Assembly: GCA_965209055.1 (NCBI GenBank)
Contig: OZ242374.1
Coordinates: forward strand, 2,144,001 to 2,208,000
Direction: 5' to 3'
Source: Acidobacteriota bacterium
GTDB lineage: Bacteria > Acidobacteriota > UBA6911 > RPQK01 > JAJDTT01
Length of the DNA: 64,000 nt
Shown here: in pieces, positions 10,017 through 24,962 of the stretch
Layout of the letters: each line of letters opens with the position of its first letter
Numbering within the stretch: position 1 is the first letter of the stretch
Notes under the pieces: model-generated
The model's database searches: none
Told to the model about the DNA's origin: nothing
What the model saw: the letters and a program-made list of their open reading frames with translations, nothing else
Position numbers and translations under genes: made by a program

Positions 10017-10349
10017 ATGGGTGAACCACTCGTCGTTGGGATCCGGGAGTTCAAGGCACGGTTGGGGACTTATCTCCGCTGGGTACGCGAAGGGCGCATC
10101 CTGACCATCACCGATCGGGGCCGGCCGGTGGCGGAAGTGACGCCGATCGAGTTTGACGGTGGTTCTGTGGAAGCACGTCTGGCTCGTTTACGGAGGCAGG
10201 GCCTGGTGACGGGCCAAGCGAAACCGATGCCGCCGATCCCCAAGCCGATCATGGGAAGAGGCCGGAGCTTCTCTGAGGCTGTCAGCGAAGATCGGGAGGA
10301 TCGAGTCCTCAGCGCATCAGGTAGTCCCAGCGGGCAGCGGCTCCCTTGA
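10017..10349 (+). CDS. Orphan Phd/YefM antitoxin, 3' end running into the convergent gene
   Basis: VGIREFKARLGTYLRWVREGRILTITDRGRPVAEV; no toxin downstream. Confidence 0.85.
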   Translation: MGEPLVVGIREFKARLGTYLRWVREGRILTITDRGRPVAEVTPIEFDGGSVEARLARLRRQGLVTGQAKPMPPIPKPIMGRGRSFSEAVSEDREDRVLSASGSPSGQRLP

Positions 10350-12333
10350 CGACAAGGGGAACGTCCTGCGACAGCAGGTATCCCTGATCCATGAGCTGGA
10401 GGGCAACTTCGGTGACCCGGCCCAGGTACTCCTCCCGGCTATCGTACCTCTCCCGGATGGAGAGCCGGGGGTCACCCGCTTCGAGACGCTCCTCCTTGCT
10501 CCGGGCGAAGGGAATGTAGGAGCCGCGGAAGCTGCAGATTTCCGTCGGCGGACCCTGGCCGGGGCCGAAGAGGTTCCATCCCGCATACGTGGCCAGGGGG
10601 ACCGCCACTTCCGGAAGGCGGATCCCCGCCAGCTCGTTCCCGTCGGCGTCGACCTTGGGCACCAGAATCGGAAAGGGAGCGCCGACTCGCGGCGGCTGGA
10701 AGCTCACAATGCCCTCCGAACGAAACCGGGGGCCGTAATCCACCCGGTAGGCACGGTGGATTCTGGTGGGCACCCGGATGCCCGGCAACCGGGGAAACTC
10801 GAACTCGGGAAACGGGACCAGAGTGGCCTCGTCCAAGCGGGGATACCGGCTCGGCGGCGGAGTCGCTCCGTCGGCCACCCACCGATCCAGGGCCAGGAGC
10901 AGGGCGCGCATCGCCCAGCGGAAATCCAGCGGATTGTCCAGTTGCTGCCCCCTGGATCGGGAAGGAGGGAAGGGTCCCACGCCATGCTGGCTGCCCGTAA
11001 AATGGTAGTGGCGAACCTGGTCCATGAACTCCACGTCCCGGGTTCCGTCCACGGTGGTGTGAATCAGGGAAGAGGCGCGGCCCCAATATTCGTAGGAGGA
11101 GTTGGTGTAGAAGATCTTGGGGCAAAGCTCGGGCCGGGCGAAGTGGATGAGCAGTCCGTCGGTCTTCCCCGTCACCGGGTCGGTCTGGGCCCTGCCGGTG
11201 AAGGGGAAGATGTCGGTGGGATAGAAGAAGTTGGAGAAGGGCTGGGCGTCCCGCGACGGCTGTGCGAACCGGTGGTTGAAGCTGCCCCGACCGGCCCCCG
11301 CCACGTGCGGTATGAGTCCGTCGAAGACCCGCCGGTTCTGCTCGTCCGCGTTGAAACCCTGGTAGAGGAAGGTCCGCAGGAAGCGTCCGCTCTGCGAACT
11401 CCCGTACCCCAGGGCGCGGTTCAGGGCGGTCCGTGGAATGGACAGGTCCGGATCGCCTTCGTACTTGAGGTGGGAGATCATGTCTCGCACGGCCGTCGGG
11501 CCCAGTCCCACCAGGGGAGGATCCTGGCCCCGGTAGATCACTTCGTAAATCCGGCCGGGCTCGAATCCCCCTTCCAGAACGACATGAGTCGGGTCGGGCA
11601 CCGCCTGTCCCCCCTCCATTCGGGCGAACCGCCAGCGGTTCCTGGGAACGGGCTGGCGCTCACCCTCGACCTCATCCCGGACCGTCATGGAGTTCTCGGG
11701 GGCGTCGGGATCGGACACGGGGTACGGAATGTGGTTGCGGTCCGAGAGAATGTGGTGGTCGGCGCGGGTCTTGACCACGAAGTCGCATCGCACCAGGCCG
11801 GTGATGGGACGGTCCGGGTCCCGGGCGACGGCCGGGTAGACGCGAATGTTCCCCGACCGGTGGGGCGGGTCCAGTTGCCATCCCAGCCACAGCAGAGTGA
11901 AGCCCTGCCGCATGAGGAAGCCGTCTCCGAACTCCTCGCGGGTTTTGGGTGTCGGGCTGTACCGGGCCAGGTTGAAGTGTGCCACCAGGGCCTTCCCGCC
12001 CCGGTTGGAGACCTCGTAGAAAATGGCGCCGTTCCCTCGCTCCACCTGGACCGGTTTCAGCAGCGCCAGATCGGAGGAGAACTCAACCTCGCCCTGCTCG
12101 TTCCGGGGCGCCTTCCCGATGTCGGTGATGATCCGATTGGGTCCCACTTCGGGATCGACGGCGAAATGCACCCGTCCCGTGATTATTTCGTAGGGACCCA
12201 CGAGGGGATAGGGCTCGCCATCCAGGATCGGATTCCGTTCGTGGATCTCCACCCGGACGACGCGCGCCCACAGAGGGCTCAACGAAAAAAGTAGCGAAGA
12301 GATGACGATGAACAGGCGTGCCATGCCGGCCAT
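10309..12333 (-). CDS. Secreted alpha/beta-hydrolase domain protein (copy 1)
   Basis: YEVSNRG, GSSQSGRFLR nucleophile elbow, SSYEYW, PKVDADGNE..GIRLP. Confidence 0.85.
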   Translation of the reverse strand: MAGMARLFIVISSLLFSLSPLWARVVRVEIHERNPILDGEPYPLVGPYEIITGRVHFAVDPEVGPNRIITDIGKAPRNEQGEVEFSSDLALLKPVQVERGNGAIFYEVSNRGGKALVAHFNLARYSPTPKTREEFGDGFLMRQGFTLLWLGWQLDPPHRSGNIRVYPAVARDPDRPITGLVRCDFVVKTRADHHILSDRNHIPYPVSDPDAPENSMTVRDEVEGERQPVPRNRWRFARMEGGQAVPDPTHVVLEGGFEPGRIYEVIYRGQDPPLVGLGPTAVRDMISHLKYEGDPDLSIPRTALNRALGYGSSQSGRFLRTFLYQGFNADEQNRRVFDGLIPHVAGAGRGSFNHRFAQPSRDAQPFSNFFYPTDIFPFTGRAQTDPVTGKTDGLLIHFARPELCPKIFYTNSSYEYWGRASSLIHTTVDGTRDVEFMDQVRHYHFTGSQHGVGPFPPSRSRGQQLDNPLDFRWAMRALLLALDRWVADGATPPPSRYPRLDEATLVPFPEFEFPRLPGIRVPTRIHRAYRVDYGPRFRSEGIVSFQPPRVGAPFPILVPKVDADGNELAGIRLPEVAVPLATYAGWNLFGPGQGPPTEICSFRGSYIPFARSKEERLEAGDPRLSIRERYDSREEYLGRVTEVALQLMDQGYLLSQDVPLVVKGAAARWDYLMR

Positions 12334-12581
12334 TAGAGTCGGAGCGGGAGATGGGAGTCAAGAAGCCGGGAGGGTGACCTGACTTGATGGTCCGGCTGGA
12401 CGGGGTCCCTCGTTACCGGCGCCAGTATCGATCGCTCAGTTCCGTCTTTGCGGGACGCTGAGCGATTGCGCCGGGACCCGGCGCGACGAGCAGCCGAAAA
12501 TTCTCTTGCCGTACTCGTTCCGCGTCCTGGTGGCCACGGGTCTGCTTGGTCAGTCAAGCGTGCCCATGGCGGAAAAAGACG

Positions 12582-13007
12582 TCAGCCGAGCACAGTTTCG
12601 GCCACATCCTCTGCCTTGTTCACCAACATGATCGCAAGGACTATGACAATGACAACAGCAATCAAGAGCACCAGGATCATTCCCATGCCGCCGGCTCTGA
12701 ACTGCTCGTTCACCTGCCTGCTTTGCCGGGCCAGCTCCGCCAAAGTCTCGTTGTCCAGCGTGGGGACTGCAACCGCGACTTTCTCCAGGTCGAAAAGGTG
12801 CCCCACGTGATCTTGAACCCCCTGGTCACGGAGCAGCGTCTGGACTTCGCGAATGTTGCCGGCGCGTTCGGCCGTTAGTGCCGCGACCTGGTCCCGCAAC
12901 TCCTCGATCGATACCAGGTGAACCGTTTTCTGTGCCGGGAGGGGACCGGCCTGCAAGCTGGTATGTGAGACCAAGAGGACCGAAAGGAACAAGGATATGG
13001 CTTTCAC
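12582..13007 (-). CDS. Exported/membrane protein (PA2779-like)
   Basis: Signal peptide, LDNETLAELA..AGG followed by a hydrophobic C-terminal helix; GAGGAGG SD. Confidence 0.6.
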   Translation of the reverse strand: MKAISLFLSVLLVSHTSLQAGPLPAQKTVHLVSIEELRDQVAALTAERAGNIREVQTLLRDQGVQDHVGHLFDLEKVAVAVPTLDNETLAELARQSRQVNEQFRAGGMGMILVLLIAVVIVIVLAIMLVNKAEDVAETVLG

Positions 13008-13228
13008 TGTCTACCTCCTCTGCATCTGAATCGCTGGCAGTATAACGCCACGGAAGTGAAACATCGTGCGCGGGTTGAGATCGAGGGCCGGGATAGGCCT
13101 CGAGATCCGGATCCAGTGATCCCAACCGGCCGATTTTTTCGCCCGGGTCCTCGTGTCCGGATGGGCTGATTGACACTCTCGGTTCAGATGAGCTATGCAT
13201 TCTTCACGTTCCCCCATTGAGAGCCGAA

Positions 13229-13600
13229 ATGAACTGGAAGCATGTCAGCATCAAGGCCTTGGTTGTCATTGGCGCGATCATGGTCTGCGGATCTGTGGCG
13301 GGCATGGTGTTGGCAAACTATATGATCCACCTTTTCGGCACGAAGCTCATTTATTCGCAGGGACTCGGCGTTGCTATGTGGGGCACGATTTGGGGGGTGA
13401 TCTGGCTCGTGGATACCCATCACCTCTCCATGTCCCGAAAGGCGCTGTCTGCAGCCGATCCCGCGACTGCGAAAAAACATCTGGGACGAATCCGAATCCT
13501 GCGTAGCAAGGAGGAGTCGATCAGGCGGGAGCATGGCTTGATACGTCCCTATTCCGACCCGGGCCGGCCCCTGGGCCTGGACTCTCGCAAGGGGGAATAA
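13229..13600 (+). CDS. Hypothetical membrane protein
   Basis: Two hydrophobic helices. Confidence 0.5.
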   Translation: MNWKHVSIKALVVIGAIMVCGSVAGMVLANYMIHLFGTKLIYSQGLGVAMWGTIWGVIWLVDTHHLSMSRKALSAADPATAKKHLGRIRILRSKEESIRREHGLIRPYSDPGRPLGLDSRKGE

Positions 13601-13683
13601 TGGGAGGCGGTCGCATGCAAGAATCTTGGCGCCCCTCTGAGAGAAGGTGGAATCGGCAACGCGATCAAGAGCATCGAGGTGTG

Positions 13684-14298
13684 ATGGCAGACGTGTCCCG
13701 TGGCTTGGTGCTCCTGCTGTTGTTCGGCGCGGCGAGTGCCTGGGTTCACACTCAGGATCGCTGGAGCGTCGCGGAAGAGGAGATCGTGCGCCTGGCTCCC
13801 GCGGCATTCGAAAAGGTTCCGGCGGCGATCCGGAAGGGACTTTCCGACCTGGGTTGCTCGATCCCTCAGGCCTGGGACAACGCATCAGGCAAGAACGATC
13901 ACGGCTGCTCGATCCCTCCACCCCGAGGCAGCGACCAGCCGCACAACGTCGTCTCAGGCGAATTCATGGAAGCCGGCCAGACGCTGTGGGCCGCGCTCTG
14001 CTCTCGCAATCGAACATCAGCCATCATTGTGATCGATGAAAACGGGCGAGTTCGGGCCGAACTCGCATCGGCCCCGGACCGGAGTTATCTGCAAGGTATC
14101 GGGTGCGGAAAGATCGCCTATTCGCGCTGGTTGAGCCCGGCCGGGGCTGATTTCATCCTGTCCGTCTACCATGCCTACGGAGGACGGAAGCCACCGCCGA
14201 TCGATCATCAAGGTATCGACAATGCCTTTCTCGAAAAGGCCTCCACGGTGCACTACTTCCACGAAGGAAAGTGGCTGCGGTTGGCTGGTGCGGACTGA
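13684..14298 (+). CDS. Exported hypothetical protein
   Basis: Signal peptide MADVSRGLVLLLL; GAGG upstream; start uncertain (ORF open from 13600). Confidence 0.6.
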   Translation: MADVSRGLVLLLLFGAASAWVHTQDRWSVAEEEIVRLAPAAFEKVPAAIRKGLSDLGCSIPQAWDNASGKNDHGCSIPPPRGSDQPHNVVSGEFMEAGQTLWAALCSRNRTSAIIVIDENGRVRAELASAPDRSYLQGIGCGKIAYSRWLSPAGADFILSVYHAYGGRKPPPIDHQGIDNAFLEKASTVHYFHEGKWLRLAGAD

Positions 14299-14532
14299 GT
14301 CGCCGAGACATCCCCTTTCCGGTCCCTTCGATCTGGCCGGGCCTTCCATTTGAAATCACGACACGCCGGGACGAACCTTGGACATCGCGTGCCGGCGATT
14401 CTCTTCCGGATTTCGCACGGGAGAAGGACAGCCACGTTTTCGGTCCCTCTTGCGCTGTTATACAGATTCTCAACTGCGGGCTAGATTCGATTTTTGTTCC
14501 GGAATCGAAATTTTTTTGGACATTGCTTAGTG

Positions 14533-14567
14533 GTACGACCGGATCTGGCGTATCTGCTTGCTAGACT
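14533..14567 (+). promoter_or_regulatory. DriD-type WYL-regulator box plus extended -10
   Basis: GTACGAC-N7-GGCGTAT (14533-14553) resembles the DriD consensus ATACGAC-N7-GTCGTAT as recalled from the literature; TGcTAGACT at 14559-14567; GGAGG SD before ATG 14598. Confidence 0.65.
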
Positions 14568-14597
14568 CCCTCGACTCGTCGTTGGCGGAGGCAAGCG

Positions 14598-16688
14598 ATG
14601 CAGAACATCTATGAACGGCGGCTGATCCTGTCATACCTCTCGAACCTGGTTTCGCGCTGTCATCACAGTTCCCGTGCGGCCCGCAAACTGGCCGATTGCG
14701 TCGCCGAGTGGGGTGACCTGCTGGTGATCGTGGATTGCTCCGGCAGACGGACTGCAGAAAGACTCTGCACCTGTTCCCACGGAAAACTGTCAGCAACACG
14801 TTGGCAGCAGATAAAGGACATCCTCAAGGGCCAGCAAGAGGTGACGAGACGTGTACGCGGCGACCGGACGGCGGTCCGGCTCCGGCGCCTCGGGCGCGAA
14901 ATGCAGCTTTCTCGAACGGATATCGCGATTCTCGAATTTCTGCTGCGCTACGAATCGAAACCGCCCTTCGAGTCCTTCATCGACGACATTGGCCTTGCAT
15001 ACTACCGAACGTGGCGGAGTGCCTTTTCGATCGGTTGCCGTCCACTGATGGATTTTCTCGGTTTGTCGTCCGGCTCGTGTCGGGCCCGTTTTGCTACGGA
15101 CGCACCGCTCGTGAAGTCGGGCCTTTTGTCCATCACCTCCGATGGGACAATTCAACCCATCGCCCGATTGCATCGGCTCGTTTATACGCCTGGGAACGCC
15201 AGGATCGATGCGCGGAGGCTACTGTTTGACGTGGGTCCTCCGAGCGAACTTGAGTGGTCGGATTTCGAACATGTCGCTGAAAGCCGAGACCACGCCGAAC
15301 GCTTGATCAAGGGTGCGCTTCAGGCTCGCGAACCGGGCGTCAACATCTTGATCTACGGTTCGCCGGGGACCGGCAAGACCCAGTTCTGTAGAACCCTGGC
15401 CCGTCGGCTGAACGTGAAGCTCTACAGCATAGGCGAAATGGACGAGGGTGGGGACGAGCCCACTCGTGTCGAAAGGCTTCAGGAACTGCGGCTGGCGCAA
15501 CGCCTGCTGTCAAGCGGCCAAGATTCGATTCTGTTGTTCGACGAAATGGAAGATCTACTTTCCAATCCGGTTTCCAGGAGCGCGACGTTCATTATGAAGA
15601 TCAATCGGCGTCCGACTCGGCGCAATTGGCGTCAGGCATATGGTTCGAAGGTATTCATGAACCGGTTGCTGGAGCAGAATGCGGTGCCTACATTGTGGAC
15701 CTCCAACTCCGCCCGGCAGACCTGTCCCACTCTGCTCCGTCGTATGATGTTCGCCTTGGAAATGCGCCAACCCTCGCCTCGGGTCCGGGCCCGGATCTGG
15801 GCTCGTCAGCTCGCCAACCACGGTATCGAAGCGAGTCGCGAGGAGGCGAACTCTCTGGCCAGGGAGTACGACGTGCCGCCGGGTGTGGCAGCCGGAGTCA
15901 CCGCCGCCGCCCGACTTGTTGATGGAGGCGATATCGCGACGGTCCACTGCGGAGTGCGCAGCCTGTCGCGGCTGCTGGTGGGCGAAACCCCTCCTCAACA
16001 GGTACCGCACGAGTTTGAGCCCGCCCTGATTAATGCGGATATCGATCCGGCAGTGCTTGCCGATCGCTTGGCCGAGCGCGGGGCGAGGCGGGTTTCTCTT
16101 TGTCTGAATGGACCGCCCGGCACCGGGAAGAGCGCGTATGTCCGCTACTTGGCCGAGCGGGTTGGATTGGAGGTCGTGCAAAAACGTGCGTCCGACCTGA
16201 TGTCCATGTGGGTGGGGGCCACCGAGAAGCAAATCGCCACCGCCTTCGCCGAGGCGCGCGACGCAAGACAATTTCTCGTATTCGATGAAGCCGACTCGCT
16301 GCTCGCCGACCGGAGGTTTGCTCAGCGCTCATGGGAGGTGAGTCAAGTCAACGAAATGCTGACCTGGATGGAAAGTCATCCCCTGCCGTTCGCCTGCACC
16401 ACCAACTTCAGCGAGCACCTTGACCCTGCGACCTTGCGACGTTTTGATTTCAAGATCGCGCTTGACTACCTGCGTCCCAGGCAGGCGATGGCGGCCTTCC
16501 GCACCTTCTTCGGCCTCGCGCCGCCGCCGGAAATCACAGGTCTCGCCAACCTCACGCCGGGCGATTTTTCCGGGGTTCGCCGGCAGGCTGAGATACTCGA
16601 TCAGTTGGAAGACCCGGAGGTCCTCTACGGCATGCTGCGCCAGGAGTGCGAAGCCAAACCAGATCGTCCGACGGCGGTTGGTTTCTGA
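14598..16688 (+). CDS. Double AAA+ ATPase (SpoVK/Ycf46/Vps4-like)
   Basis: Walker A GSPGTGKT and GPPGTGKS; Walker B LLFDE and LVFDEAD; SRH TTN..LDPATLRRFD. Confidence 0.9.
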   Translation: MQNIYERRLILSYLSNLVSRCHHSSRAARKLADCVAEWGDLLVIVDCSGRRTAERLCTCSHGKLSATRWQQIKDILKGQQEVTRRVRGDRTAVRLRRLGREMQLSRTDIAILEFLLRYESKPPFESFIDDIGLAYYRTWRSAFSIGCRPLMDFLGLSSGSCRARFATDAPLVKSGLLSITSDGTIQPIARLHRLVYTPGNARIDARRLLFDVGPPSELEWSDFEHVAESRDHAERLIKGALQAREPGVNILIYGSPGTGKTQFCRTLARRLNVKLYSIGEMDEGGDEPTRVERLQELRLAQRLLSSGQDSILLFDEMEDLLSNPVSRSATFIMKINRRPTRRNWRQAYGSKVFMNRLLEQNAVPTLWTSNSARQTCPTLLRRMMFALEMRQPSPRVRARIWARQLANHGIEASREEANSLAREYDVPPGVAAGVTAAARLVDGGDIATVHCGVRSLSRLLVGETPPQQVPHEFEPALINADIDPAVLADRLAERGARRVSLCLNGPPGTGKSAYVRYLAERVGLEVVQKRASDLMSMWVGATEKQIATAFAEARDARQFLVFDEADSLLADRRFAQRSWEVSQVNEMLTWMESHPLPFACTTNFSEHLDPATLRRFDFKIALDYLRPRQAMAAFRTFFGLAPPPEITGLANLTPGDFSGVRRQAEILDQLEDPEVLYGMLRQECEAKPDRPTAVGF

Positions 16689-16776
16689 AGCTCATGGGGT
16701 GCGAGCGACCTTCCCGGACGAGAGTCACGGGTCGGGCAAGGCCGAACGTCCGGGGATAGACAAAGGAATCGGCGGA

Positions 16777-17835
16777 ATGCGTTACCAACGGGTTATTGAC
16801 ATTGTGCGCTTGGCGATTCAGCTCCAGGGAACGTTGGGCGGATTGACGTTGAATGGTATTTCCGAAAGGTTCCGCGTCAGCCGCCGTACGGCGGAACGGA
16901 TGCGCAATGCAGTCGATGCAGCGTTTGGTCCGCTTCAGTTGGTGGACAGAGACGACAGGCGGCGCCACTGGCAGCTCCGATCCAGCGCCCTATGCCGGTT
17001 TATCCGAATTTCAGCGGAGGAGTTGGCGGAAATCGATTCCGCAGCTAAGTCTCTGGACCGGACGGGGCTCGTCGAACGGGCTGTCATGCTCCGGGAGCTG
17101 GCGGAAAAGCTCCGCGCCCTGCGGCGACCCCTCGCCGCAGAGGAGTTCGATGCCGACCTGGAGGTGCTTATGCGGGCTGAAGGACTCGCCATGCGCCCCG
17201 GCCCCAGACCTCACGTCGAGAAAGGGCTGCTTTCGTTGCTGCGCGATGCCATCAAGGCGAGACGCGCGGTGGAATTTGACTACTTCTCACAGTCGACGGA
17301 ACGGTGCAGTTTGCAGCGGGTCCAGCCCTACGGCGTCCTCTACGGAAACCGGGCGTTCCTGGTCGCATGGACGGATTGGGCAGACGACATGCGGCTTTGG
17401 CGGCTCGGGAACATCAGTAATGTCCGCGCGACCGGCGAAACCTTTGAGCGTGACCGGTCATTCGATTTGCGGCGCTACGCAGAGCGCTCGTTTGGCACCT
17501 TCCAAGAATCACCCGTCGAGGTGGTCTTGCGTTTCGACGCCGGGGTGGCCGGCGATGCAGCCGCATTCCTGTTTCATCCGAGCCAGTCCCTCACCAGGCA
17601 CCGTGATGGCTCGCTGACAGTGCGTTTCAAAGCCGGCGGCCTCGACGAGATGTGCTGGCATCTCTTCACTTGGGGCGACAGCGTCACGGTGGAAAACCCG
17701 GCCAGCTTGCGCCGCCGCCTGGCCCAGATGTGCGCTTCTCTCGCGGCTCACCATGATGCGCGGAGCGCCCTAAGAGACGCTCCGGCGACTGATCCGGACC
17801 TTCCCACAATTCCCAAATTTAGGAGAGAGCCATGA
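16777..17835 (+). CDS. HTH-WYL-WCX transcriptional regulator, DriD-like
   Basis: GLTL..VSRRTAERMR wHTH, GPRP, VQPYGVLYG..WRL, SFG, FHPSQ..DGS..AGG..WHLFTWGD match the DriD architecture. Confidence 0.9.
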   Translation: MRYQRVIDIVRLAIQLQGTLGGLTLNGISERFRVSRRTAERMRNAVDAAFGPLQLVDRDDRRRHWQLRSSALCRFIRISAEELAEIDSAAKSLDRTGLVERAVMLRELAEKLRALRRPLAAEEFDADLEVLMRAEGLAMRPGPRPHVEKGLLSLLRDAIKARRAVEFDYFSQSTERCSLQRVQPYGVLYGNRAFLVAWTDWADDMRLWRLGNISNVRATGETFERDRSFDLRRYAERSFGTFQESPVEVVLRFDAGVAGDAAAFLFHPSQSLTRHRDGSLTVRFKAGGLDEMCWHLFTWGDSVTVENPASLRRRLAQMCASLAAHHDARSALRDAPATDPDLPTIPKFRREP

Positions 17836-18905
17836 ATTCGAAGACTCCCAATCTTTTCCACTATGCCACCAAGGAACTCTCTCAGGACGCATTGATCTGC
17901 TGGTTGATCGAATGGGCTGGACAACCGCCAGGCACCAAGAAGGCGGACGAAGAAATGCGCCGTTGTGGACTCCGGTTCGTAAACGCCTTGCTTAATCATA
18001 GGAGAGACGAAGCAGATCCCATCGAGTTGAAGAGTGTGTCCAAGGTCGAAATCCTTCAGCAAGAGCGAGGCATCGACGTTCTTGCGCGTATCAATAAACG
18101 ACATGTGCTTTTGATTGAGGACAAGACCGACACGAAGGATCACAGCAACCAACTGTCGAGGTATTACCACGATGTAGTGGAGGGTCGCACCACGTTCGGC
18201 AAAGTGAAGGAGAGAGATCTCTATCCAGTCTATTTCAAGACAGGCAATCAGCCTCTCGCAGATGATCGCCGCATTGAGGAAATTGAAGACTGTACCTACA
18301 AAGTATTCAATCGAAAGGATTTTCTGACTGTCCTCAATGACTGCAAGGGTCGCAATCCGATTCTCTTGGATTTCCGGAAATATCTTCAGGAACTGGAGGA
18401 CGACACCAACGCCTACGCGGGATGGACCAGATCCCAGGGCGGTTCCCGGCTGCCCTGGGAAGGATTCTGTCGGTGCCTCGAATACGAATGGGACAGCTCC
18501 GGGCGCTGGATCTGGTGGGGCTATGTCTCAAATCGTTCAGGTGGGTTTCACTGTTTCTCATGGGCTCCGTCGGACGATACCGAGCAGTACCTTCAAATCG
18601 AGGCGCGCCTTGAGTCTGAAACGGTGGCCGAAGCCAGACTTTGCTTCAAGGTTGACGCTGGCGAAACACCCCGTGATCAGTGGCAAGACTTGAAATGGTC
18701 CTGGCACGAGCGGGTTGTAGAGGCAGGTAGAGGACGAGTGGTTAAGCCCCACCGAATGAGGGTTGGAAACACTATGACTGTTGGTTGGTGGAAAGAGAAT
18801 TGGATGGCCTTCGGCAAGGACAATAGGCTGGACTTGGCCGGCACCATCGAGAACCTGAAGCAAGCAGAGGAGGTATTGCAAGCCGCCATTTCATCGAACT
18901 CGTGA
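17832..18905 (+). CDS. PD-(D/E)XK nuclease (PDDEXK_4-like)
   Basis: NLFHYATKELSQDALICWL..IDVL..LLIEDK..NQLSRY; ATGA overlap with the WYL gene. Confidence 0.8.
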   Translation: MNSKTPNLFHYATKELSQDALICWLIEWAGQPPGTKKADEEMRRCGLRFVNALLNHRRDEADPIELKSVSKVEILQQERGIDVLARINKRHVLLIEDKTDTKDHSNQLSRYYHDVVEGRTTFGKVKERDLYPVYFKTGNQPLADDRRIEEIEDCTYKVFNRKDFLTVLNDCKGRNPILLDFRKYLQELEDDTNAYAGWTRSQGGSRLPWEGFCRCLEYEWDSSGRWIWWGYVSNRSGGFHCFSWAPSDDTEQYLQIEARLESETVAEARLCFKVDAGETPRDQWQDLKWSWHERVVEAGRGRVVKPHRMRVGNTMTVGWWKENWMAFGKDNRLDLAGTIENLKQAEEVLQAAISSNS

Positions 18906-18935
18906 GACTTCAGTTCGGACCGAATCATGGCGCCA

Positions 18936-19048
18936 GGAGCGGCGATTGCTAATTGCCGAACTCCAGAGTAACGCTGGGGCAAGAAGGGAATGGGCGATTG
19001 GAAATCGCCCTTCCAAATCGCCCTTCCAAATCGCCCTTCCAATTCGCC
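18936..19048. repeat. REP-like inverted doublet with triplicated 13-bp terminal arm
   Basis: GGAGCGGCGATTGCTAATTGCCG ... GGGCGATTGGAAATCGCCCTTCC; AAATCGCCCTTCC x3 at 19002-19040. Confidence 0.8.
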
Positions 19049-19179
19049 ACCATGGCTCTTGCCCCGAACCGGAGCCCTCCGGTAGCATTTTCCGTATCAA
19101 TACTTTTCGAGTCTCGGCAGTCACGTCCCCCGTCCGGTCCGGCCGCTGACCGGATTTTTCCATTGAGGAGTCGCCAGTC

Positions 19180-20466
19180 ATGAGTCAAGCATCCATTCAC
19201 CGCCGTTCCTTTCTGACCCGTTCGGCCGGAGCCGGAGCGGGCTTGGCCCTGGCCGGCTTTCCCGGCATCGTCAGCGCTCGCAACGTCAACAATCGCCTCA
19301 ACCTGGGAATCGTGGGGCCGGGAGGGCGCGGCACCGGACGACTGAAGCGGTTCTTTCAAATGAACCGGCGGTTCAACGCCCGGCTCGTCGCCGTCTGCGA
19401 CCTCTGGAACTACCGCCGCGAAAATGCCGTGGAGCTGGCAAAGGCCGAGCAGGGCTACGCCCCCAAGGCTTACCGCCATCACGAAGAGATTCTGGCCGAT
19501 GCCGAGGTGGACGCCCTGATCATCGCCACCCCCGACCACGCCCACGCTCAGATCCTGAAGTTGGCCGCCGACTCAGGCAAGGACGCCTACTGCGAAAAAC
19601 CCATGGCCAACGTGCTGGAGGAGGCCAACGCGGCCCTGGACGCGGTGCGCAAATCCGACACCATCGTCCAGATCGGGACCCAGAGACGTGCCAATCCCAA
19701 GTATCGCCAGGCCAGCCGCATGATTGCCGAAGGGTTCATCGGCGACGTGGTCAAGGCCGACTTCCATTGGAGCAAATACAGTCCTTATCGTTGGGCCCGG
19801 AAGGAAAAGGACATCCTGATGGCCAAGGAGGACGATCTGGACTGGAACACCTGGCTCATGGGACGCCCCCACCGGCCCTTCGACCCCCGGATCTTTCGCT
19901 GTTTCCGGCTCTTCAAGGACTTTTCCAGCGGCATCATCGACCAGTGGATGAGCCACGGCATCGACTTGGCGCACATGCTCACGGGTGTTACCTACCCCTC
20001 GACCGTCGTGGCCCATGGCGGGATCTACCAGTGGAAGGACTACCGGGAGAATCCGGACACTCAGGAGATCACCCTGGAGTACAAGAAGGGTGACCGGAAG
20101 TTCCTGACCGTCTACTCCACCAACTGGATCAACGGGTACGGCAGCGGCACCCGGGTCCACGGGACCCTGGGAAGTTTCAAGGGCGAGGCCATTTCCTACC
20201 GTGACGACGACTGGCATTTCACCGGCAAAGGGGTGAAGGCCGACGGCAGAGTGGCGGACATAGTTCCGGTTGAAGGGGACCCCGGAGAGACCGACCACAT
20301 GGCCAACTGGCTGGACGCCGTCCGCAGTCGAGATTCAAAGCGGCTGTATTGTCCCGTCGAGGCCGGCTACGGTCATTCCATCGCCTGCATCATGGCGACC
20401 GATTCCTACTGGAGCGGGAAACGAATGGTCTTCGACCCGGTGAAGCGAACCATCCGGGCCGGATAG
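19180..20466 (+). CDS. Gfo/Idh/MocA oxidoreductase, Tat-exported
   Basis: RRSFL Tat signal, GIVGPGGRG, ATPDHAH, YCEKPM, QIGTQRR. Confidence 0.9.
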   Translation: MSQASIHRRSFLTRSAGAGAGLALAGFPGIVSARNVNNRLNLGIVGPGGRGTGRLKRFFQMNRRFNARLVAVCDLWNYRRENAVELAKAEQGYAPKAYRHHEEILADAEVDALIIATPDHAHAQILKLAADSGKDAYCEKPMANVLEEANAALDAVRKSDTIVQIGTQRRANPKYRQASRMIAEGFIGDVVKADFHWSKYSPYRWARKEKDILMAKEDDLDWNTWLMGRPHRPFDPRIFRCFRLFKDFSSGIIDQWMSHGIDLAHMLTGVTYPSTVVAHGGIYQWKDYRENPDTQEITLEYKKGDRKFLTVYSTNWINGYGSGTRVHGTLGSFKGEAISYRDDDWHFTGKGVKADGRVADIVPVEGDPGETDHMANWLDAVRSRDSKRLYCPVEAGYGHSIACIMATDSYWSGKRMVFDPVKRTIRAG

Positions 20467-20570: not shown

Positions 20571-22916
20571 TTACTTCTCCGACATCCAATTCCGGTGGCG
20601 CAGGTCGTATTCCCGATCCCCAATGAGGCTGGGAAAGCTCCAAATCTCACGCTGGATCTCTCCCGACAGGATCTTCGACCGCTCCAGCAGCGACAGCAAC
20701 TGGTAGACGCGGGACTCGACCAGCGGGAAATAGGCCCCGATGTTGTAGGAGCCCTGGGCGCCGGGCCTGGTGTTCAAGACTGGCCAGACTCCTTTCTCGT
20801 TCTGTCGAGCCAGGATTTCCCCCAACTCCCCACCGGCAAACTGGGAAACGGACTCGGCCAGTTGGGCCCGGGTCATGCGGACGGGCACGGGCCGCGGTCC
20901 GTCCCGGCGCTTTCGTAGTTCCGGCTCCAGCCGCTGCCCATCGGGCCTCTTCATGAAAACGGACCAGGGAAATTCCTCTTCCGAGATCTGATCCGGGTTG
21001 GCCCACATCGCCGAACCGGTCTTCAGGAAGGCCACCCGATCCTGAGGGTTGTCCAGGTAATAGGTCTTCCAATTCTTGAGGTCCACGGCGATGGGCCGGC
21101 CGGTCCTGTGGTCCACCAGTCGGCTCCGCATCGGCACTCTCTCTCCGCCCACGTTCACCTCAATCAGAGCGCTCTTCTCCCAGTCGAGGTAACGGGCGAC
21201 CGGATCCAGGTATTTCCGGTCACGGGTCAGGTCATAAAGGAAGAAGAGGTTCTCACAGGCGCTGACGCTGGACCCGGGAGAAAGGCCCGGAGGGTGGTAG
21301 ACGCGGGACCAGACCGGCTGGTTCCGTCCGTCGTAGGCCAGGGCCCAGCCGTAGGTCGGGGGACCCAACTGGGCCGCGAGATGCCAATCGCCGTTGCGAA
21401 CGATGGCGTCCCGGTACTTGTCCAAGCCGGTCAGGTGATGGGCCAACTGCATCACCCGAAGCTGGTTGCGCTGGTTCCCGTTGTCGAACTCGGCCCCGTG
21501 GGGGTCCTGGTTGCGGTTCTCGCTGCGGCCTTCCTTCAGGTTGTAGGTGTAGCCCCAACTGCCGTTGGGGTTCTGGGCCTTGAGGATGAAGTCGGCCGAG
21601 CGCCGGAAGCCCTCCAGCCACCGCTCCTCCCGCGTCACCAGGTAGAGCCGGGCCATGAAGAGGGCGGCCTGGCTCTGGCGGCCGTCCTGAAAAGTGGGAT
21701 AGTCGCGGTGGACGGTCCGCCGGTGGGAAGTGAGGACCTCTCGCCGGGGTGTCGGCCGACCGCCGGTGTGACGGTCGTAATGGTTGACCCAGTAGCCCTC
21801 CGGCTGCTGGGCCGACAGCAGCCATTCTCCCGCCTTCCGGGCCACTTCCAGGTAGCGCCGGTCCCCCAGCACCTGATACGCGTACAGGAAGAGTCGTCCC
21901 GCTCCCGGCGTGCCGTTCCTGCCGTGGGCCAGCTCCATGAAACGGTCCAGGCCGGGATGGAAGTAGGTGCGGTAGCTGGTTTCCCCCGGCAGCAGGTGAG
22001 GCCAGGCGTAGAGGATGGCGCTCCAGGCTCCGTCGATTTGGAGCCGGCTGATGAAATCCAGGTGGCGGCAGACGGCGTCCGTGATCCGCACCGCCGCCTT
22101 CTCCGGCAGGTGCGTTTCCCGGCCCCGAAGCGCCAGCATCTCCTGGACCGTCACGTCGCTGATCTTCAACTCGTCGAAGCGCGCCCCGGCAGTCTGCAGG
22201 ACGACCCGGGGATCGAGGCCCTCTCGGCCCACTCCCCCATAGTAGGAAGCTCCCAGAAACAGAATGTGGAAGCGGTTCACCTCCAGGGGCTTGCCCACCG
22301 AGAGACTCCGGAGCCGGCCATCCAGGGCCAGCCAGAGCCGCCCCTTCCGGTCGTCCCAGGAAAACAGCAGATGGTGCCAGTCCTCGGCCTCCAGATCGGA
22401 AACCGGAAAGTCGAGGGAGCCCACCACCTCGCCGTCTCCTTTCCAGTGGCGGCCGGCCCAGGAGAGCCGCAACCGGTTGTCGCTCGTTTTCCACAGTTCC
22501 AGGTCGCGGCGCACGGCGGCCGCTGAGAAGAGGCAGTGCCTGAGCCCGTCCCGCCAGATGTTCCGTCCCGGTTTGCTTCGGACCCAAAACTGGACGGTCC
22601 CTCGGTCCGGTCGCATGTTGCCGTGGGCCCGAAGGTTGATCTGGGCTCCCGGGATGTCGATCTCGATCCCGCCGCCGACCCTGCCGGGAACCGAAGCGTC
22701 GTAGTTGCGTCCGGCCGCGCCCATCCCGTCTCGCTCGTAGTCGGGCTGGATGCCGCCGGGTGCGTCGAAGCGGGCCAAGAGGGTGGTGTGCCGGTCCCGC
22801 TCGACGGGGGCGCTCACCCAATCGGGAAGATCGGTCGTGGTTTGAACCGGCCGGCCGCCGGCCGGAAAAGTGGAAGCCAGGAGGAGAGTTGCCGCCAGAA
22901 GATTCTTCGTCGAAAT
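20571..22916 (-). CDS. LamG-like domain plus alpha/alpha-barrel (pectate lyase PL10-like) protein
   Basis: GTVQFWV..WHHLLFSW LamG pattern; repeated AQ-x-x-x-G-x-W motifs. First canonical start is GTG 22817, but an in-frame signal peptide extends to ATT 22916. Confidence 0.6.
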   Translation of the reverse strand: MSTKNLLAATLLLASTFPAGGRPVQTTTDLPDWVSAPVERDRHTTLLARFDAPGGIQPDYERDGMGAAGRNYDASVPGRVGGGIEIDIPGAQINLRAHGNMRPDRGTVQFWVRSKPGRNIWRDGLRHCLFSAAAVRRDLELWKTSDNRLRLSWAGRHWKGDGEVVGSLDFPVSDLEAEDWHHLLFSWDDRKGRLWLALDGRLRSLSVGKPLEVNRFHILFLGASYYGGVGREGLDPRVVLQTAGARFDELKISDVTVQEMLALRGRETHLPEKAAVRITDAVCRHLDFISRLQIDGAWSAILYAWPHLLPGETSYRTYFHPGLDRFMELAHGRNGTPGAGRLFLYAYQVLGDRRYLEVARKAGEWLLSAQQPEGYWVNHYDRHTGGRPTPRREVLTSHRRTVHRDYPTFQDGRQSQAALFMARLYLVTREERWLEGFRRSADFILKAQNPNGSWGYTYNLKEGRSENRNQDPHGAEFDNGNQRNQLRVMQLAHHLTGLDKYRDAIVRNGDWHLAAQLGPPTYGWALAYDGRNQPVWSRVYHPPGLSPGSSVSACENLFFLYDLTRDRKYLDPVARYLDWEKSALIEVNVGGERVPMRSRLVDHRTGRPIAVDLKNWKTYYLDNPQDRVAFLKTGSAMWANPDQISEEEFPWSVFMKRPDGQRLEPELRKRRDGPRPVPVRMTRAQLAESVSQFAGGELGEILARQNEKGVWPVLNTRPGAQGSYNIGAYFPLVESRVYQLLSLLERSKILSGEIQREIWSFPSLIGDREYDLRHRNWMSEK

Positions 22917-22937: not shown

Positions 22938-24962
22938 TCAGCGCATCAGATAATCCCAGCGTGCAGCCGCTCCCTTGACGACTTGGGGAACATCCTGGGA
23001 CAGGAGGTATCCTTGATCCAGGAGCGCAAGGGCGACTGCGGCGACGCGGCCCAGGTACTCTTCCCGGCTCCCGTACCTTTCCTGGATGGAAAGGCGCGGG
23101 TCACCCGCCTCGAGTCGCTCCCGCTTGGTCCGGGCGAAGGGAATCCAGGAGCCGCGAAAGCTGCAAATTTCCGTCGGCGGCCCCCTTCCAGGGCCGAAGA
23201 GGTTCCATCCCGTGTAAGTGGCCAGGGGCACCGCTACTTCCGGAAGGCGAATCCCCGCCAACTCGTTGCCGTCGGCGTCGACCTTGGGGACCAGGATCGG
23301 AAAGGGTTCGCCGACTCGAGGCGGCTGGATGCTCACGATGCCCTGGGAACGAAACCGGGGACCGTAATTCACCCGGTACGCCCGGTGGATTCGGGTGGGC
23401 GCGCGAACTCCCGGCAAACGGGGAAAGTCGAACTCGGGAAAGGGGACCAGTGTGTCCTGGTCCAAGCGCGGGTAGCGGCTGGGGGGCGGGATCGTGCCCT
23501 CCGCCACCCATCGGTCCAGGGCCAGGAGCAGGGCGCGCATGGTCCAGCGAATCTCCAGCGGATTGTTGAGTTGTTCTCCCGTCGTCCGGTCGGGAGGGAA
23601 GCGTCCGGGGGAGTGTTGGCTGCCGGTGAAGAGATAGTGGCGAACCTGATCCATCGGCTCCACGTCCCCGGTTCCGTCCACGGTGGTGTGAATCAGGGAA
23701 GAGGCGCGGCCCCAATACTCGTAGGACGAGTTGGTGTAGAAGATCTTGGGGCTCAGCTCAGGCCGGGCAAAGTGGATGAGCAGCCCGTCGGTCCGGCCGG
23801 TCACCGGGTCGGTCTGGGCCCTACCGGTGAAGGGAAAGATGTCGGTGGGATAGAAGAAGTTGGCGAAGGGCTGGGCGTCCCGGGACGGCTGGGCGAAGCG
23901 GTGGTTGAAGCTGCCCCGTCCCGCACCCGCCACGTGCGGCATGAGTCCGTCGAAGACCCGCCGGTTCTGCTCGTCCTCGTTGAAACCGTGGTAGAGGAAG
24001 GTCCGCAGGAACCGGCCGCTCTGGGAGCTGCCGTACCCCAGGGCCCGGTTCAGGGCGCCCCGGGGAATGGAGAGCACCGGATCGTCCTCGTACTTGAGGT
24101 GGGAGATCATGTCCCGCACCGCCGTGGGGCCCAGTCCTACCAGGGGCGGGTCCTGGGCCCGGTAGACCACTTCGTAGATCCTGTGGGGCTCGAATCCGCC
24201 TTCCAGCAGGACGTGGGTCGGGTCGGGCACCGGCCGCCCCCCCTCCATTCGGGCGAATCTCCAGCGCTCGCGGGGAATCGTCTGGCGCTCGCCCTCGACG
24301 GCATCCCGGACCGTCATGGAATTCTCGGGGTCGTCGGGATCGGACACGGGATATGGAATATGCCTGCGGTCCGAGAGCAGGCGGTGTTCGACGTGGGTCT
24401 TGGGCACGAAGTCGCACCTCACCAGTCCGGTGATGGGGCCTGCCGGATCCCGGGCGACGGCCGGATACACACGAACGTTTCCGGGAGTGTGCGGCGGGTC
24501 CAATTGCCAACCCAGCCAGAGGAGCGTAAAACCGCGGCGCATGAGAAATCCGTCCCCGAAATCCTCGCGGACCTTGGGATCGCGCCTGAACCGGGCCAGG
24601 CTGAAGAAGCCCAGCATGTTCTTCCCGCCCCGGTTGGAGACCTCGTAGAGCAGGGCGCCGTTGCCTCGCTCCACCCGGACCGGCTTCATCATCACGAAAT
24701 CGGAGGAGAACTCCACCTCGCCCCGATCATTGCGAGGGGCTTTCCGGATGTCGGTGATGATCCGGTTGGGAACCAGTTCGGGATCGACGGCGAAGTGCAC
24801 ACGTCCAGTGATCCTTTCGTAGGGGCCCACGAGGGGATAGGGCTCACCCTCCAGCAACGGATCCCTCTCCTGGATCTCCACCCGCACGACGCGCGCCCAG
24901 AGCGGACTCAGGAAGATCAGGAATGAGGAGATGGCAATGAAGAGGCGGGACACACGAATCAT
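22938..24962 (-). CDS. Secreted alpha/beta-hydrolase domain protein (copy 2)
   Basis: Colinear 674-aa paralog of 10309-12333. Confidence 0.85.
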   Translation of the reverse strand: MIRVSRLFIAISSFLIFLSPLWARVVRVEIQERDPLLEGEPYPLVGPYERITGRVHFAVDPELVPNRIITDIRKAPRNDRGEVEFSSDFVMMKPVRVERGNGALLYEVSNRGGKNMLGFFSLARFRRDPKVREDFGDGFLMRRGFTLLWLGWQLDPPHTPGNVRVYPAVARDPAGPITGLVRCDFVPKTHVEHRLLSDRRHIPYPVSDPDDPENSMTVRDAVEGERQTIPRERWRFARMEGGRPVPDPTHVLLEGGFEPHRIYEVVYRAQDPPLVGLGPTAVRDMISHLKYEDDPVLSIPRGALNRALGYGSSQSGRFLRTFLYHGFNEDEQNRRVFDGLMPHVAGAGRGSFNHRFAQPSRDAQPFANFFYPTDIFPFTGRAQTDPVTGRTDGLLIHFARPELSPKIFYTNSSYEYWGRASSLIHTTVDGTGDVEPMDQVRHYLFTGSQHSPGRFPPDRTTGEQLNNPLEIRWTMRALLLALDRWVAEGTIPPPSRYPRLDQDTLVPFPEFDFPRLPGVRAPTRIHRAYRVNYGPRFRSQGIVSIQPPRVGEPFPILVPKVDADGNELAGIRLPEVAVPLATYTGWNLFGPGRGPPTEICSFRGSWIPFARTKRERLEAGDPRLSIQERYGSREEYLGRVAAVALALLDQGYLLSQDVPQVVKGAAARWDYLMR

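Follow-up and report, generated by a model that had tools for sequence, protein, structure and literature searches.

What does a putative sensor of single-stranded DNA (ssDNA) control when its gene lies between those of a double-ring ATPase and a nuclease? The question is raised by a locus in a stretch of 64,000 nucleotides (nt) from an Acidobacteriota bacterium (GenBank assembly GCA_965209055.1, contig OZ242374.1, positions 2,144,001 to 2,208,000), the whole of which is here called the window. Three co-directional genes on the forward strand encode, according to open reading frame (ORF) calls and Pfam, a double-AAA ATPase, a HTH-WYL-WCX regulator and a PDDEXK_4 nuclease; the regulator stop and the nuclease start overlap in an ATGA, with AGGAGAG just 5' of the overlap (Table 1). 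An earlier sequence-only reading of the locus had pointed to the three co-oriented genes and to the ATGA overlap, both of which the ORFs and the sequence bear out, and had taken the trio as a candidate ssDNA-triggered system. The analysis of related loci reported below leads to a different unit: what is conserved is the ATPase-regulator pair and not the trio. We consider it probable that the locus is a self-contained, horizontally spread stress module, whose core would consist of a DriD-family ssDNA sensor and activator together with a Cdc48/p97-like double-ring AAA unfoldase.

Table 1. Features of the locus and its surroundings in the window (aa, amino acids; residue numbers refer to the respective protein).
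Feature	Position	Strand	Details
DriD-type operator box GTACGACCGGATCTGGCGTAT	14533..14553	+	12/14 consensus positions; 65 nt 5' of AAA start codon
Extended -10-like element TGCTAGACT	14559..14567	+	TGnTAnnnT type; 8 nt 3' of box
A/T tract (aaattttttt)	14505-14521		just 5' of box
Double-AAA (type II, Cdc48/p97-like) ATPase	14598-16688	+	696 aa; helical bundle 1-87; winged-helix-like about 88-205; D1 about 245-420; D2 about 495-640
DriD-family wHTH-3HB-WYL-WCX regulator	16777-17835	+	352 aa; ORF open from 16420
ATGA overlap, regulator stop/nuclease start	17832-17835	+	
PDDEXK_4 nuclease	17832-18905	+	357 aa; D82, E96, K98; conserved C-terminal alpha/beta domain (about 200-357)
REP-like palindromic and tandem repeat cluster	18983..19048	.	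13-nt unit, 4 copies (tandem units 18989-19048)
Terminator-like hairpin with T-run	19132..19165	+	hairpin 19132-19155; likely transcription-unit end
Abhydrolase_10 gene, upstream	10309-12333	-	674 aa
ORFs upstream of the block	12448-14298		
GFO/IDH/MocA oxidoreductase	19180-20466	+	
Pectate-lyase-like gene	20571-22817	-	
Abhydrolase_10 gene, downstream	22938-24962	-	674 aa

The regulator is the component whose family is most readily established. Its WYL (PF13280, E 1.5e-13) and WCX (PF25583, E 3.4e-15) domains both exceed the Pfam cut-offs, and PADLOC returned only generic WYL models for it. In a PDB sequence search, residues 1-322 align to chains of Caulobacter crescentus DriD, an ssDNA-activated homodimer (PDB 8TP8, 7TZV, 9PFQ), with E 2.9e-55 for 9pfq and 3.4e-55 for 8tp8, and further DriD chains (7tzv, 7u02) are matched as well. 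The next family in this search is PafC, at E 8e-9 and over the WYL-WCX part only; at E <= 0.01 the matches comprise five DriD sequences and PafC, with no CapW or BrxR chain. The ATG at 16777 was taken as the start codon because with this start residue 1 is the first to align with solved DriD. Judged by its sequence, the window WYL protein is a true DriD-family protein with the full-length architecture of winged helix-turn-helix (wHTH), 3HB, WYL and WCX parts, and the DriD-like WYL sensor proposed previously is thus borne out by full-length kinship (E 3e-55) to the solved Caulobacter protein. Indeed, the recognition helix RRTAERMR is identical to that of DriD (VSRRTAERMR versus VGRRTAERMR), including Arg37 and Arg41, which in DriD read bases of the box (PMC10853764; here and below we draw on excerpts of the papers cited). 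Among 30 homologs of the regulator R37 is conserved in at least 90% and R41 is invariant. In DriD the ssDNA is contacted by Tyr168, Arg176, Arg178, Tyr192, Arg204 and Arg207, and also by Trp206, Tyr240 and Arg288 (PMC9186387); as read by eye from the alignment, the window regulator keeps Y169, R206, W208 and R209 at such positions and has F242 for Tyr240, a replacement that is allowed among DriD homologs (PMC9186387).

The published DriD box has the consensus ATACGAC-N7-GTCGTAT (PMC10853764), and a box of this type, GTACGACCGGATCTGGCGTAT, precedes the ATPase gene, followed by the extended -10-like element TGCTAGACT. There is no -35 hexamer at this promoter because the box takes up that place, and no sigma-70 consensus promoter was found in 14250-19250. 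The conservation of this arrangement was evaluated in the 78 loci whose upstream DNA was long enough (76 of those fetched, together with the window and the second copy of the module in the same genome), with 3900 random 90-nt windows out of the same loci as control. A box matching at least 10 of the 14 positions lies at -110 to -20 of the ATPase start in 58/78 loci versus 69/3900 control windows, and the CGNC-N7-GNCG core in the same interval in 64/78 versus 472/3900. Of the 60 loci that carry a DriD-type gene 53 have the box, as do 2 of the 15 assessable loci that lack one; these two look degenerate, having a nuclease fragment (L010) or a 76-residue regulator remnant (L065). When the 58 promoters are aligned on the box, G27 (83%), T29 (86%), A30 (100%) and T34 (97%) stand at a fixed offset from it, forming a TGnTAnnnT element 8 nt 3' of the box. 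The same G27/A30/T34 spacing is evident in the didA and CCNA_03891 promoter sequences, which are those of the cryo-electron microscopy structures of DriD with RNA polymerase, where DriD covers the -35 position and keeps a constant spacing to the -10 element (PMC13004042). The DriD kinship and the conserved box and -10 element before the ATPase gene therefore make induction by ssDNA the best reading of the regulatory logic, in line with the earlier proposal that ssDNA induces an AAA remodeller and a nuclease.

Other elements of these promoters and spacers deserve a brief description. An A/T tract at the position of an UP element precedes the box in the window and also in L003, L010, L020, L030, L070 and L164; it may be of relevance, given the reported contact of DriD with the C-terminal domain of the RNA polymerase alpha subunit (PMC13004042). 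A DriD box within the spacer between the ATPase and driD genes was considered and rejected: the window has a core match, CGACCTTCCCGGACG, but matches in 4/48 loci correspond to chance level. In alphaproteobacterial spacers the sequence GCC(T/A)ATGGTG is recurrent (for example in L028, L044, L049, L054, L063 and L071), and it may be a constitutive internal promoter of driD.

The range of genes under this regulator appears to be narrow. In the 6.08-megabase (Mb) genome the composite pattern of box plus -10 element occurs at exactly 2 sites, each 5' of an ATPase gene, with 0 sites in a simulated genome. A wider DriD regulon is not indicated by a relaxed core plus -10 pattern, which is not enriched (17 genome sites versus 47 in the simulated genome). 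As the composite pattern is found only at the two ATPase promoters, the regulator looks local rather than global under the patterns searched. In Caulobacter, by contrast, the DriD regulon is dispersed (didA, bapE, recJ, dnaG, CCNA_03891/01149), with no AAA ATPase mentioned in the excerpts of the reports (PMC9186387, PMC13004042, PMC10853764), whereas here the regulator gene lies in an operon behind the double-AAA gene and the box is found only there under the pattern used. These observations bear on the possibility that the locus is a DNA-damage response or repair unit similar to the Caulobacter regulon, in which the unfoldase would clear or recycle proteins on damaged DNA and the nuclease would process ends. 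Such a unit is suggested by the DriD kinship and the didA-like promoter architecture, by the AddB-like and UvrD-like genes, DnaB and holA that stand beside the pair in several loci, and by the fact that Caulobacter DriD drives the endonuclease gene bapE as well as recJ and dnaG (PMC13004042, PMC10853764), a nuclease gene thus being among the controlled genes in both organisms, bapE there and PDDEXK_4 here. Also, Actinobacteria show a genetic link between PafBC and the proteasome with its AAA system (PMC9186387). However, with the composite box found at two AAA promoters only, the pattern used reveals no recA-, recJ- or dnaG-type regulon, and the patchy, accessory distribution among relatives and the decay of nuclease copies, described below, count against it; we regard this explanation as possible but rather unlikely.

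The partner of the regulator has two P-loop AAA modules (PF00004, E 6.8e-34, best stretch 501-623, with a second Walker A near residue 250), both of which keep Walker A and B, the sensor-1 Asn and the Arg fingers. The corresponding invariants among homologs are G254..K260-T261, D315-E316, N370 and R381-R382 in D1, and G505..K511-S512, D563-E564, N603 and R614-R615 in D2. The D2 module has a pore loop, W538-V-G540, with W538 conserved in at least 90% and G540 invariant, and no aromatic-hydrophobic-Gly pore loop was seen in the D1 sequence. The closest solved relatives are VAT, Cdc48, p97, NVL and AFG2, the NCBIfam CDC48 model giving 57.1 bits versus a cut-off of 802.65. A structure model of the N-terminal 248 residues (predicted local distance difference test, pLDDT, 79) is nearly all helical with one small hairpin, and a Cdc48-type N-domain (double-psi barrel) was not found in it. 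A profile of this N-domain matched nothing in PDB better than E 0.19; a fold search with middling scores (Z <= 7.2) linked residues 1-87 to generic helical bundles and residues 88-205 to many winged-helix proteins, and an Atlas look-up led to unnamed clusters, one with a WHD family on 11% of its members. The motifs and the model are consistent with the ATPase being probably a substrate-threading protein remodeller, targeted by its helical-bundle/winged-helix N-domain.

Which substrate such a remodeller would have is a matter on which the regulator itself must be considered. The ATPase could be a negative-feedback device that strips or unfolds ssDNA-bound DriD and so resets the response, the neighbouring genes being incidental; the tight co-inheritance of the two genes, the ATPase being the DriD-driven gene and an N-domain suited to substrate recognition would agree with this. 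Yet contact between DriD and the ATPase has no support, ATPase loci without a DriD gene occur, and the recurrent nuclease cargo would be left unexplained, all of which makes the feedback explanation highly improbable in our view. A complex prediction for the DriD dimer with the AAA N-domain had a score of 0.00, which counts neither for nor against binding. As a separate observation, ADP-ribosylglycohydrolase genes recur directly 3' of the ATPase gene or of the pair (L019, L029, L050, L081, L168, L169); in L019 and L029 they are fused to an inositol-monophosphatase domain, and the recurrence, which may tie this ATPase family to the reversal of ADP-ribosylation, extends to lineages without a DriD gene.

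The ATPase family comprises 1363 matches, and the best 80 of 561 confirmed stretches in species-representative genomes were taken as ATPase loci, the WYL genes in the fetched loci being mapped by hidden Markov model (HMM) and tblastn. These loci span Acidobacteriota, Alpha- and Gammaproteobacteria, Latescibacterota, Binatia, Nitrospirales, Thermodesulfobacteriota and Entotheonella metagenome-assembled genomes, with ATPase identities of 51-78%. A regulator that is 52-82% identical adjoins the ATPase gene in 58/80 loci. By the HMM count, the regulator is adjacent and co-directional in 50 loci, separated by an insert in 9 and divergent in 1 (about 60 of the 77 assessable), and the remaining loci have a distant WYL gene upstream (4), none (13, among which L062 is a contig-end case and L065 a pseudogene case) or are not assessable (3). 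The conserved unit is thus the pair. Side observations on these loci include a TnpB/Cas12f-like gene inserted between ATPase and regulator in L062 (2373-3947) and the arrangement in Latescibacterota (L047 2670-10324; L081 3823-13295), where the ATPase lacks a DriD box, a WYL gene (about 26% identical) lies 2-3 kilobases upstream and a DnaB-type helicase is nearby; in L047 two ATPase copies flank REase-ARP, OMP and DnaB genes.

A distinct scenario results for the nuclease. Relatives of the window protein stand near the ATPase gene in L010 (as a fragment), L031, L056 and L081, and more distant PDDEXK_4 genes in L043 and L055, so that the nuclease family is represented in 6/80 loci; the gene order of the window recurs in L056 and L160 only. 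Conversely, among the 80 nuclease-family loci (L083-L162), retrieved with an alignment as query (a single-sequence query found 1 locus), an AAA or regulator match lies near the nuclease in 9/80. The sequence-only reading had treated the trio as one system and had named conservation of the nuclease beside AAA-WYL homologs as a test of it; with these counts and only two loci in the same order, neither holds in its literal form. Its question whether the third gene is a swappable effector can be answered with yes, as other nucleases and PADLOC candidates fill the slot. Between the two core genes we find Mrr_cat (L013, L030) and PDC-M31A/B (L005), and 3' of the regulator the nucleases HNH_2 (L028, L041), NYN (L007), RNase_T (L033) and REase-ARP/PDDEXK_13 (L040), as well as DUF2779 (a cluster of 13 loci), DUF6642 and weak GIY-YIG and PLD matches. 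The PADLOC cargo candidates are PDC-M31A/B (E 2e-147, 2e-68), PDC-S26 and PDC-S11 (L026), and AddB-like PDDEXK_1 proteins (L067, L072, L082), DnaB and holA are found nearby. One set of cargo ORFs was collected by rule (start at -30 to +150 from the regulator stop). Many ORFs in the slot are without a family and some neighbours are plainly metabolic. Plasmids of Fuscovulum blasticum and of Leisingera thetidis are annotated with the gene order AAA ATPase, WYL protein, ADP-ribosylglycohydrolase, (HEPN), PD-(D/E)XK nuclease and UvrD-like helicase. On both of these Rhodobacterales plasmids the glycohydrolase gene is directly preceded by another DriD-type box, accompanied by a TAnnnT element. The nuclease is, in short, one of many interchangeable cargo genes beside a conserved pair.

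In respect to its own features, the window nuclease passes the Pfam model PF14281 (PDDEXK_4) with 30.9 bits versus a cut-off of 22.3, and its IEDK motif corresponds to D82...E96-D97-K98, in which D82, E96 and K98 are invariant in 46 homologs, pointing to a putative DNA-cleaving enzyme. Its structure model (pLDDT 91.6) has a PD-(D/E)XK-like N-domain, with middling fold matches by VIA-align (Z 6.3-7.7). The sequence matched no solved structure, either singly or as a profile, and Foldseek with the model gave no nuclease match at E <= 0.001; for the C-domain, YbjN/chaperone-like, frataxin-like and E2-like rows are tied at Z 5-7 and none is assignable. The family has 763 matches, mostly standing alone. 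Some homologs (P0033, P0037, P0042 and P0060, P0069, P0076) are fused to a response-regulator receiver domain (PF00072) or to DUF2442 (PF10387), which suggests other ways to control the same nuclease.

The distribution of the module within its host lineage is variable. The same genome has a second module (G000:C1:3892712-3896113; loci L164, L166, L002) with an ATPase 73% identical to that of the window, a divergent DriD gene (77% identical), the box GTACGTCCGGATCTGACGTAT and, 3' of the ATPase gene, what is left of the nuclease C-terminus, 56 residues with a TGA. The same ATPase followed by a nuclease remnant is also seen in L010 and G004. Among 40 relatives the ATPase is found in 4 (3/8 in the same genus) and the nuclease in 2, solely as fragments or with stops, and the nuclease gene has a G+C content of 0.53-0.55 versus 0.628 for the genome. 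Patchy presence, decaying nuclease copies and low nuclease G+C together form an accessory, mobile and decay-prone pattern. Homologs occur on plasmids, two of them conjugative, and an identity of about 55-60% across phyla implies transfer.

These are the observations that would favour the view of the trio as a dedicated anti-phage system of the abortive-infection type, in which phage ssDNA would trigger DriD, the nuclease would kill and the AAA protein would act as co-effector or licensing factor. Besides the patchiness, the two genome copies of which one has a decayed nuclease, the mobility and the low G+C, it can call upon the PADLOC candidates in the cargo (PDC-M31A/B, PDC-S26, PDC-S11), the distant relationship of the window nuclease to PDC-S26 (E 8.6e-10) and the known WYL regulators of defence operons, CapW and BrxR. 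Nevertheless, the PDC entries are candidate systems only, the pair often occurs without any nuclease, and the closest solved relatives of the regulator are the DNA-damage activators DriD and PafC, with CapW and BrxR chains missing at E <= 0.01. Furthermore, a single phage record carries a relative of the ATPase, and Pfam analysis of the flanking genes identified no known defence gene beside the block. In this strict form the anti-phage explanation appears doubtful to us.

We return to the stress module with a DriD-ATPase core. The absence of terminator-like sites between the AAA and driD genes and the ATGA coupling indicate that the three genes are likely one transcription unit. In the proposed mechanism, ssDNA that arises when DNA is damaged or when a phage or plasmid replicates would bind the WYL domains of the DriD homolog, and the ssDNA-bound dimer would occupy the box in place of the -35 element of the AAA promoter and recruit RNA polymerase, as shown for Caulobacter DriD at its -35-replacing box (PMC13004042). 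The AAA gene would thus be induced, with read-through into driD and the PD-(D/E)XK nuclease gene coupled to it in translation; the constant output would be the AAA protein, and the nuclease would be an exchangeable cargo placed under the same ssDNA control. As to its physiological role, conflict or defence has nearly an even chance, DNA-damage handling one that falls short of even and any other role a small one, the evidence being about equally compatible with the damage and defence roles. A bolder version is more a speculation than an expectation: DriD and the p97-like unfoldase would form a mobile, phylum-spanning 'chassis' on which ssDNA-triggered conflict systems of a new class are built, diverse nucleases and candidate defence genes would plug in as effectors between the two core genes, 3' of both or downstream of a second DriD box, and the unfoldase would be the universal effector or a licensing step, for example dismantling phage or plasmid replication proteins on ssDNA.

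A number of points count against the proposed module and its mechanism. Two ssDNA-contact residues of Caulobacter DriD are not kept in the window regulator, Tyr192 being replaced by Phe and Arg288 by Asp, and the Arg176/Arg178 loop is shifted in the alignment (R176 and R181 of the regulator); ssDNA binding is therefore not guaranteed, and sensing of ssDNA by the regulator is likely but not certain. A box over the -35 position could in principle repress instead of activate. In Caulobacter, DriD exerts no control over its own level, while transcription here would run on into driD; it is possible that driD has an internal promoter, a CTATGGT-like element being recurrent in alphaproteobacterial spacers. 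From 11 to 13 AAA loci have neither DriD gene nor box, and the ATPase can therefore work under other control. Concerning the counts, genes in the fetched loci were called crudely as longest ORFs, one set of neighbour ORFs sent to Pfam was hand-picked from these, and the loci are related to one another, so that counts do not represent independent events.

The module was also compared with known systems. PADLOC matched no named system with the three proteins, and their NCBIfam scores are far under the cut-offs, in agreement with the earlier remark that the trio is not recognisable as a named system. The PafBC and Pup-proteasome/Mpa locus of Actinobacteria likewise ties an ssDNA-sensing WYL damage activator to an AAA unfoldase (PMC9186387), but PafBC, either a heterodimer or a fusion, acts through sigma adaptation and matches the window regulator only weakly (PafC), and proteasome or Pup genes are not present at the window locus. 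CapW (CBASS), BrxR (BREX) and DdaA (Moraxellaceae) are WYL regulators through which a DNA-damage signal governs defence or repair genes, and DdaA in addition raises restriction-modification and CRISPR expression (PMC12392091). CapW and BrxR, however, are repressors beside named systems with no sequence match to the window regulator in the PDB search, and DdaA uses the site CGWCA-N5-TGWCG (PMC12392091). IetA, of the IetAS system (Gao 2020), is the best PADLOC and NCBIfam match of the D2 module (E 1.3e-25 and 1.2e-25), but NF042959 scores 90.5 bits versus a cut-off of 510 with one AAA module aligned only, and the operon, having regulator and nuclease only besides the ATPase, contains no IetS-type protease gene. 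Finally, the nuclease, which is over the PDDEXK_4 threshold, matches the PADLOC single-gene candidate PDC-S26 at the catalytic core; this match is confined to residues 63-115 (aligned to model positions 87-140 out of 397), and the C-domain (200-357) is subfamily-specific.

The surroundings of the block were also analysed (Table 1). The statement that it sits among unrelated catabolic genes is true of some flanks only, since the ORFs immediately upstream gave no match in the Pfam search. The two Abhydrolase_10 genes on either side of the region are paralogs (E 7e-41, 1e-41). The block had been described as ending at a repetitive extragenic palindromic (REP) doublet, and indeed four tandem units lie 3' of the nuclease stop and pair with an inverted copy. 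The palindromic unit GGCGATTGGAAATCGCC has 37 + 42 genome occurrences (79 in total) and is therefore a dispersed REP-like element, as that description implied; arrays of a related 12-mer are seen near 1.19 Mb, 3.249 Mb and 5.837 Mb of the genome.

Literature searches, whose scope left aside subscription journals, figures and supplements, retrieved no paper on a pair of DriD and AAA ATPase. Cultivable carriers exist, namely the Fuscovulum blasticum and Leisingera thetidis plasmids and a Paracoccus versutus replicon, so that tests of the module are feasible. Knowledge of DriD-type activators comes from one model organism, in which the regulon is dispersed; here, the same sensor and promoter logic appears packaged as a transferable operon, the constant output of which would be a Cdc48/p97-like ATPase. 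The module may thus offer an entry point to the role of bacterial p97-like unfoldases when ssDNA appears, and to how nucleases and candidate defence genes come under a DNA-damage or infection signal.

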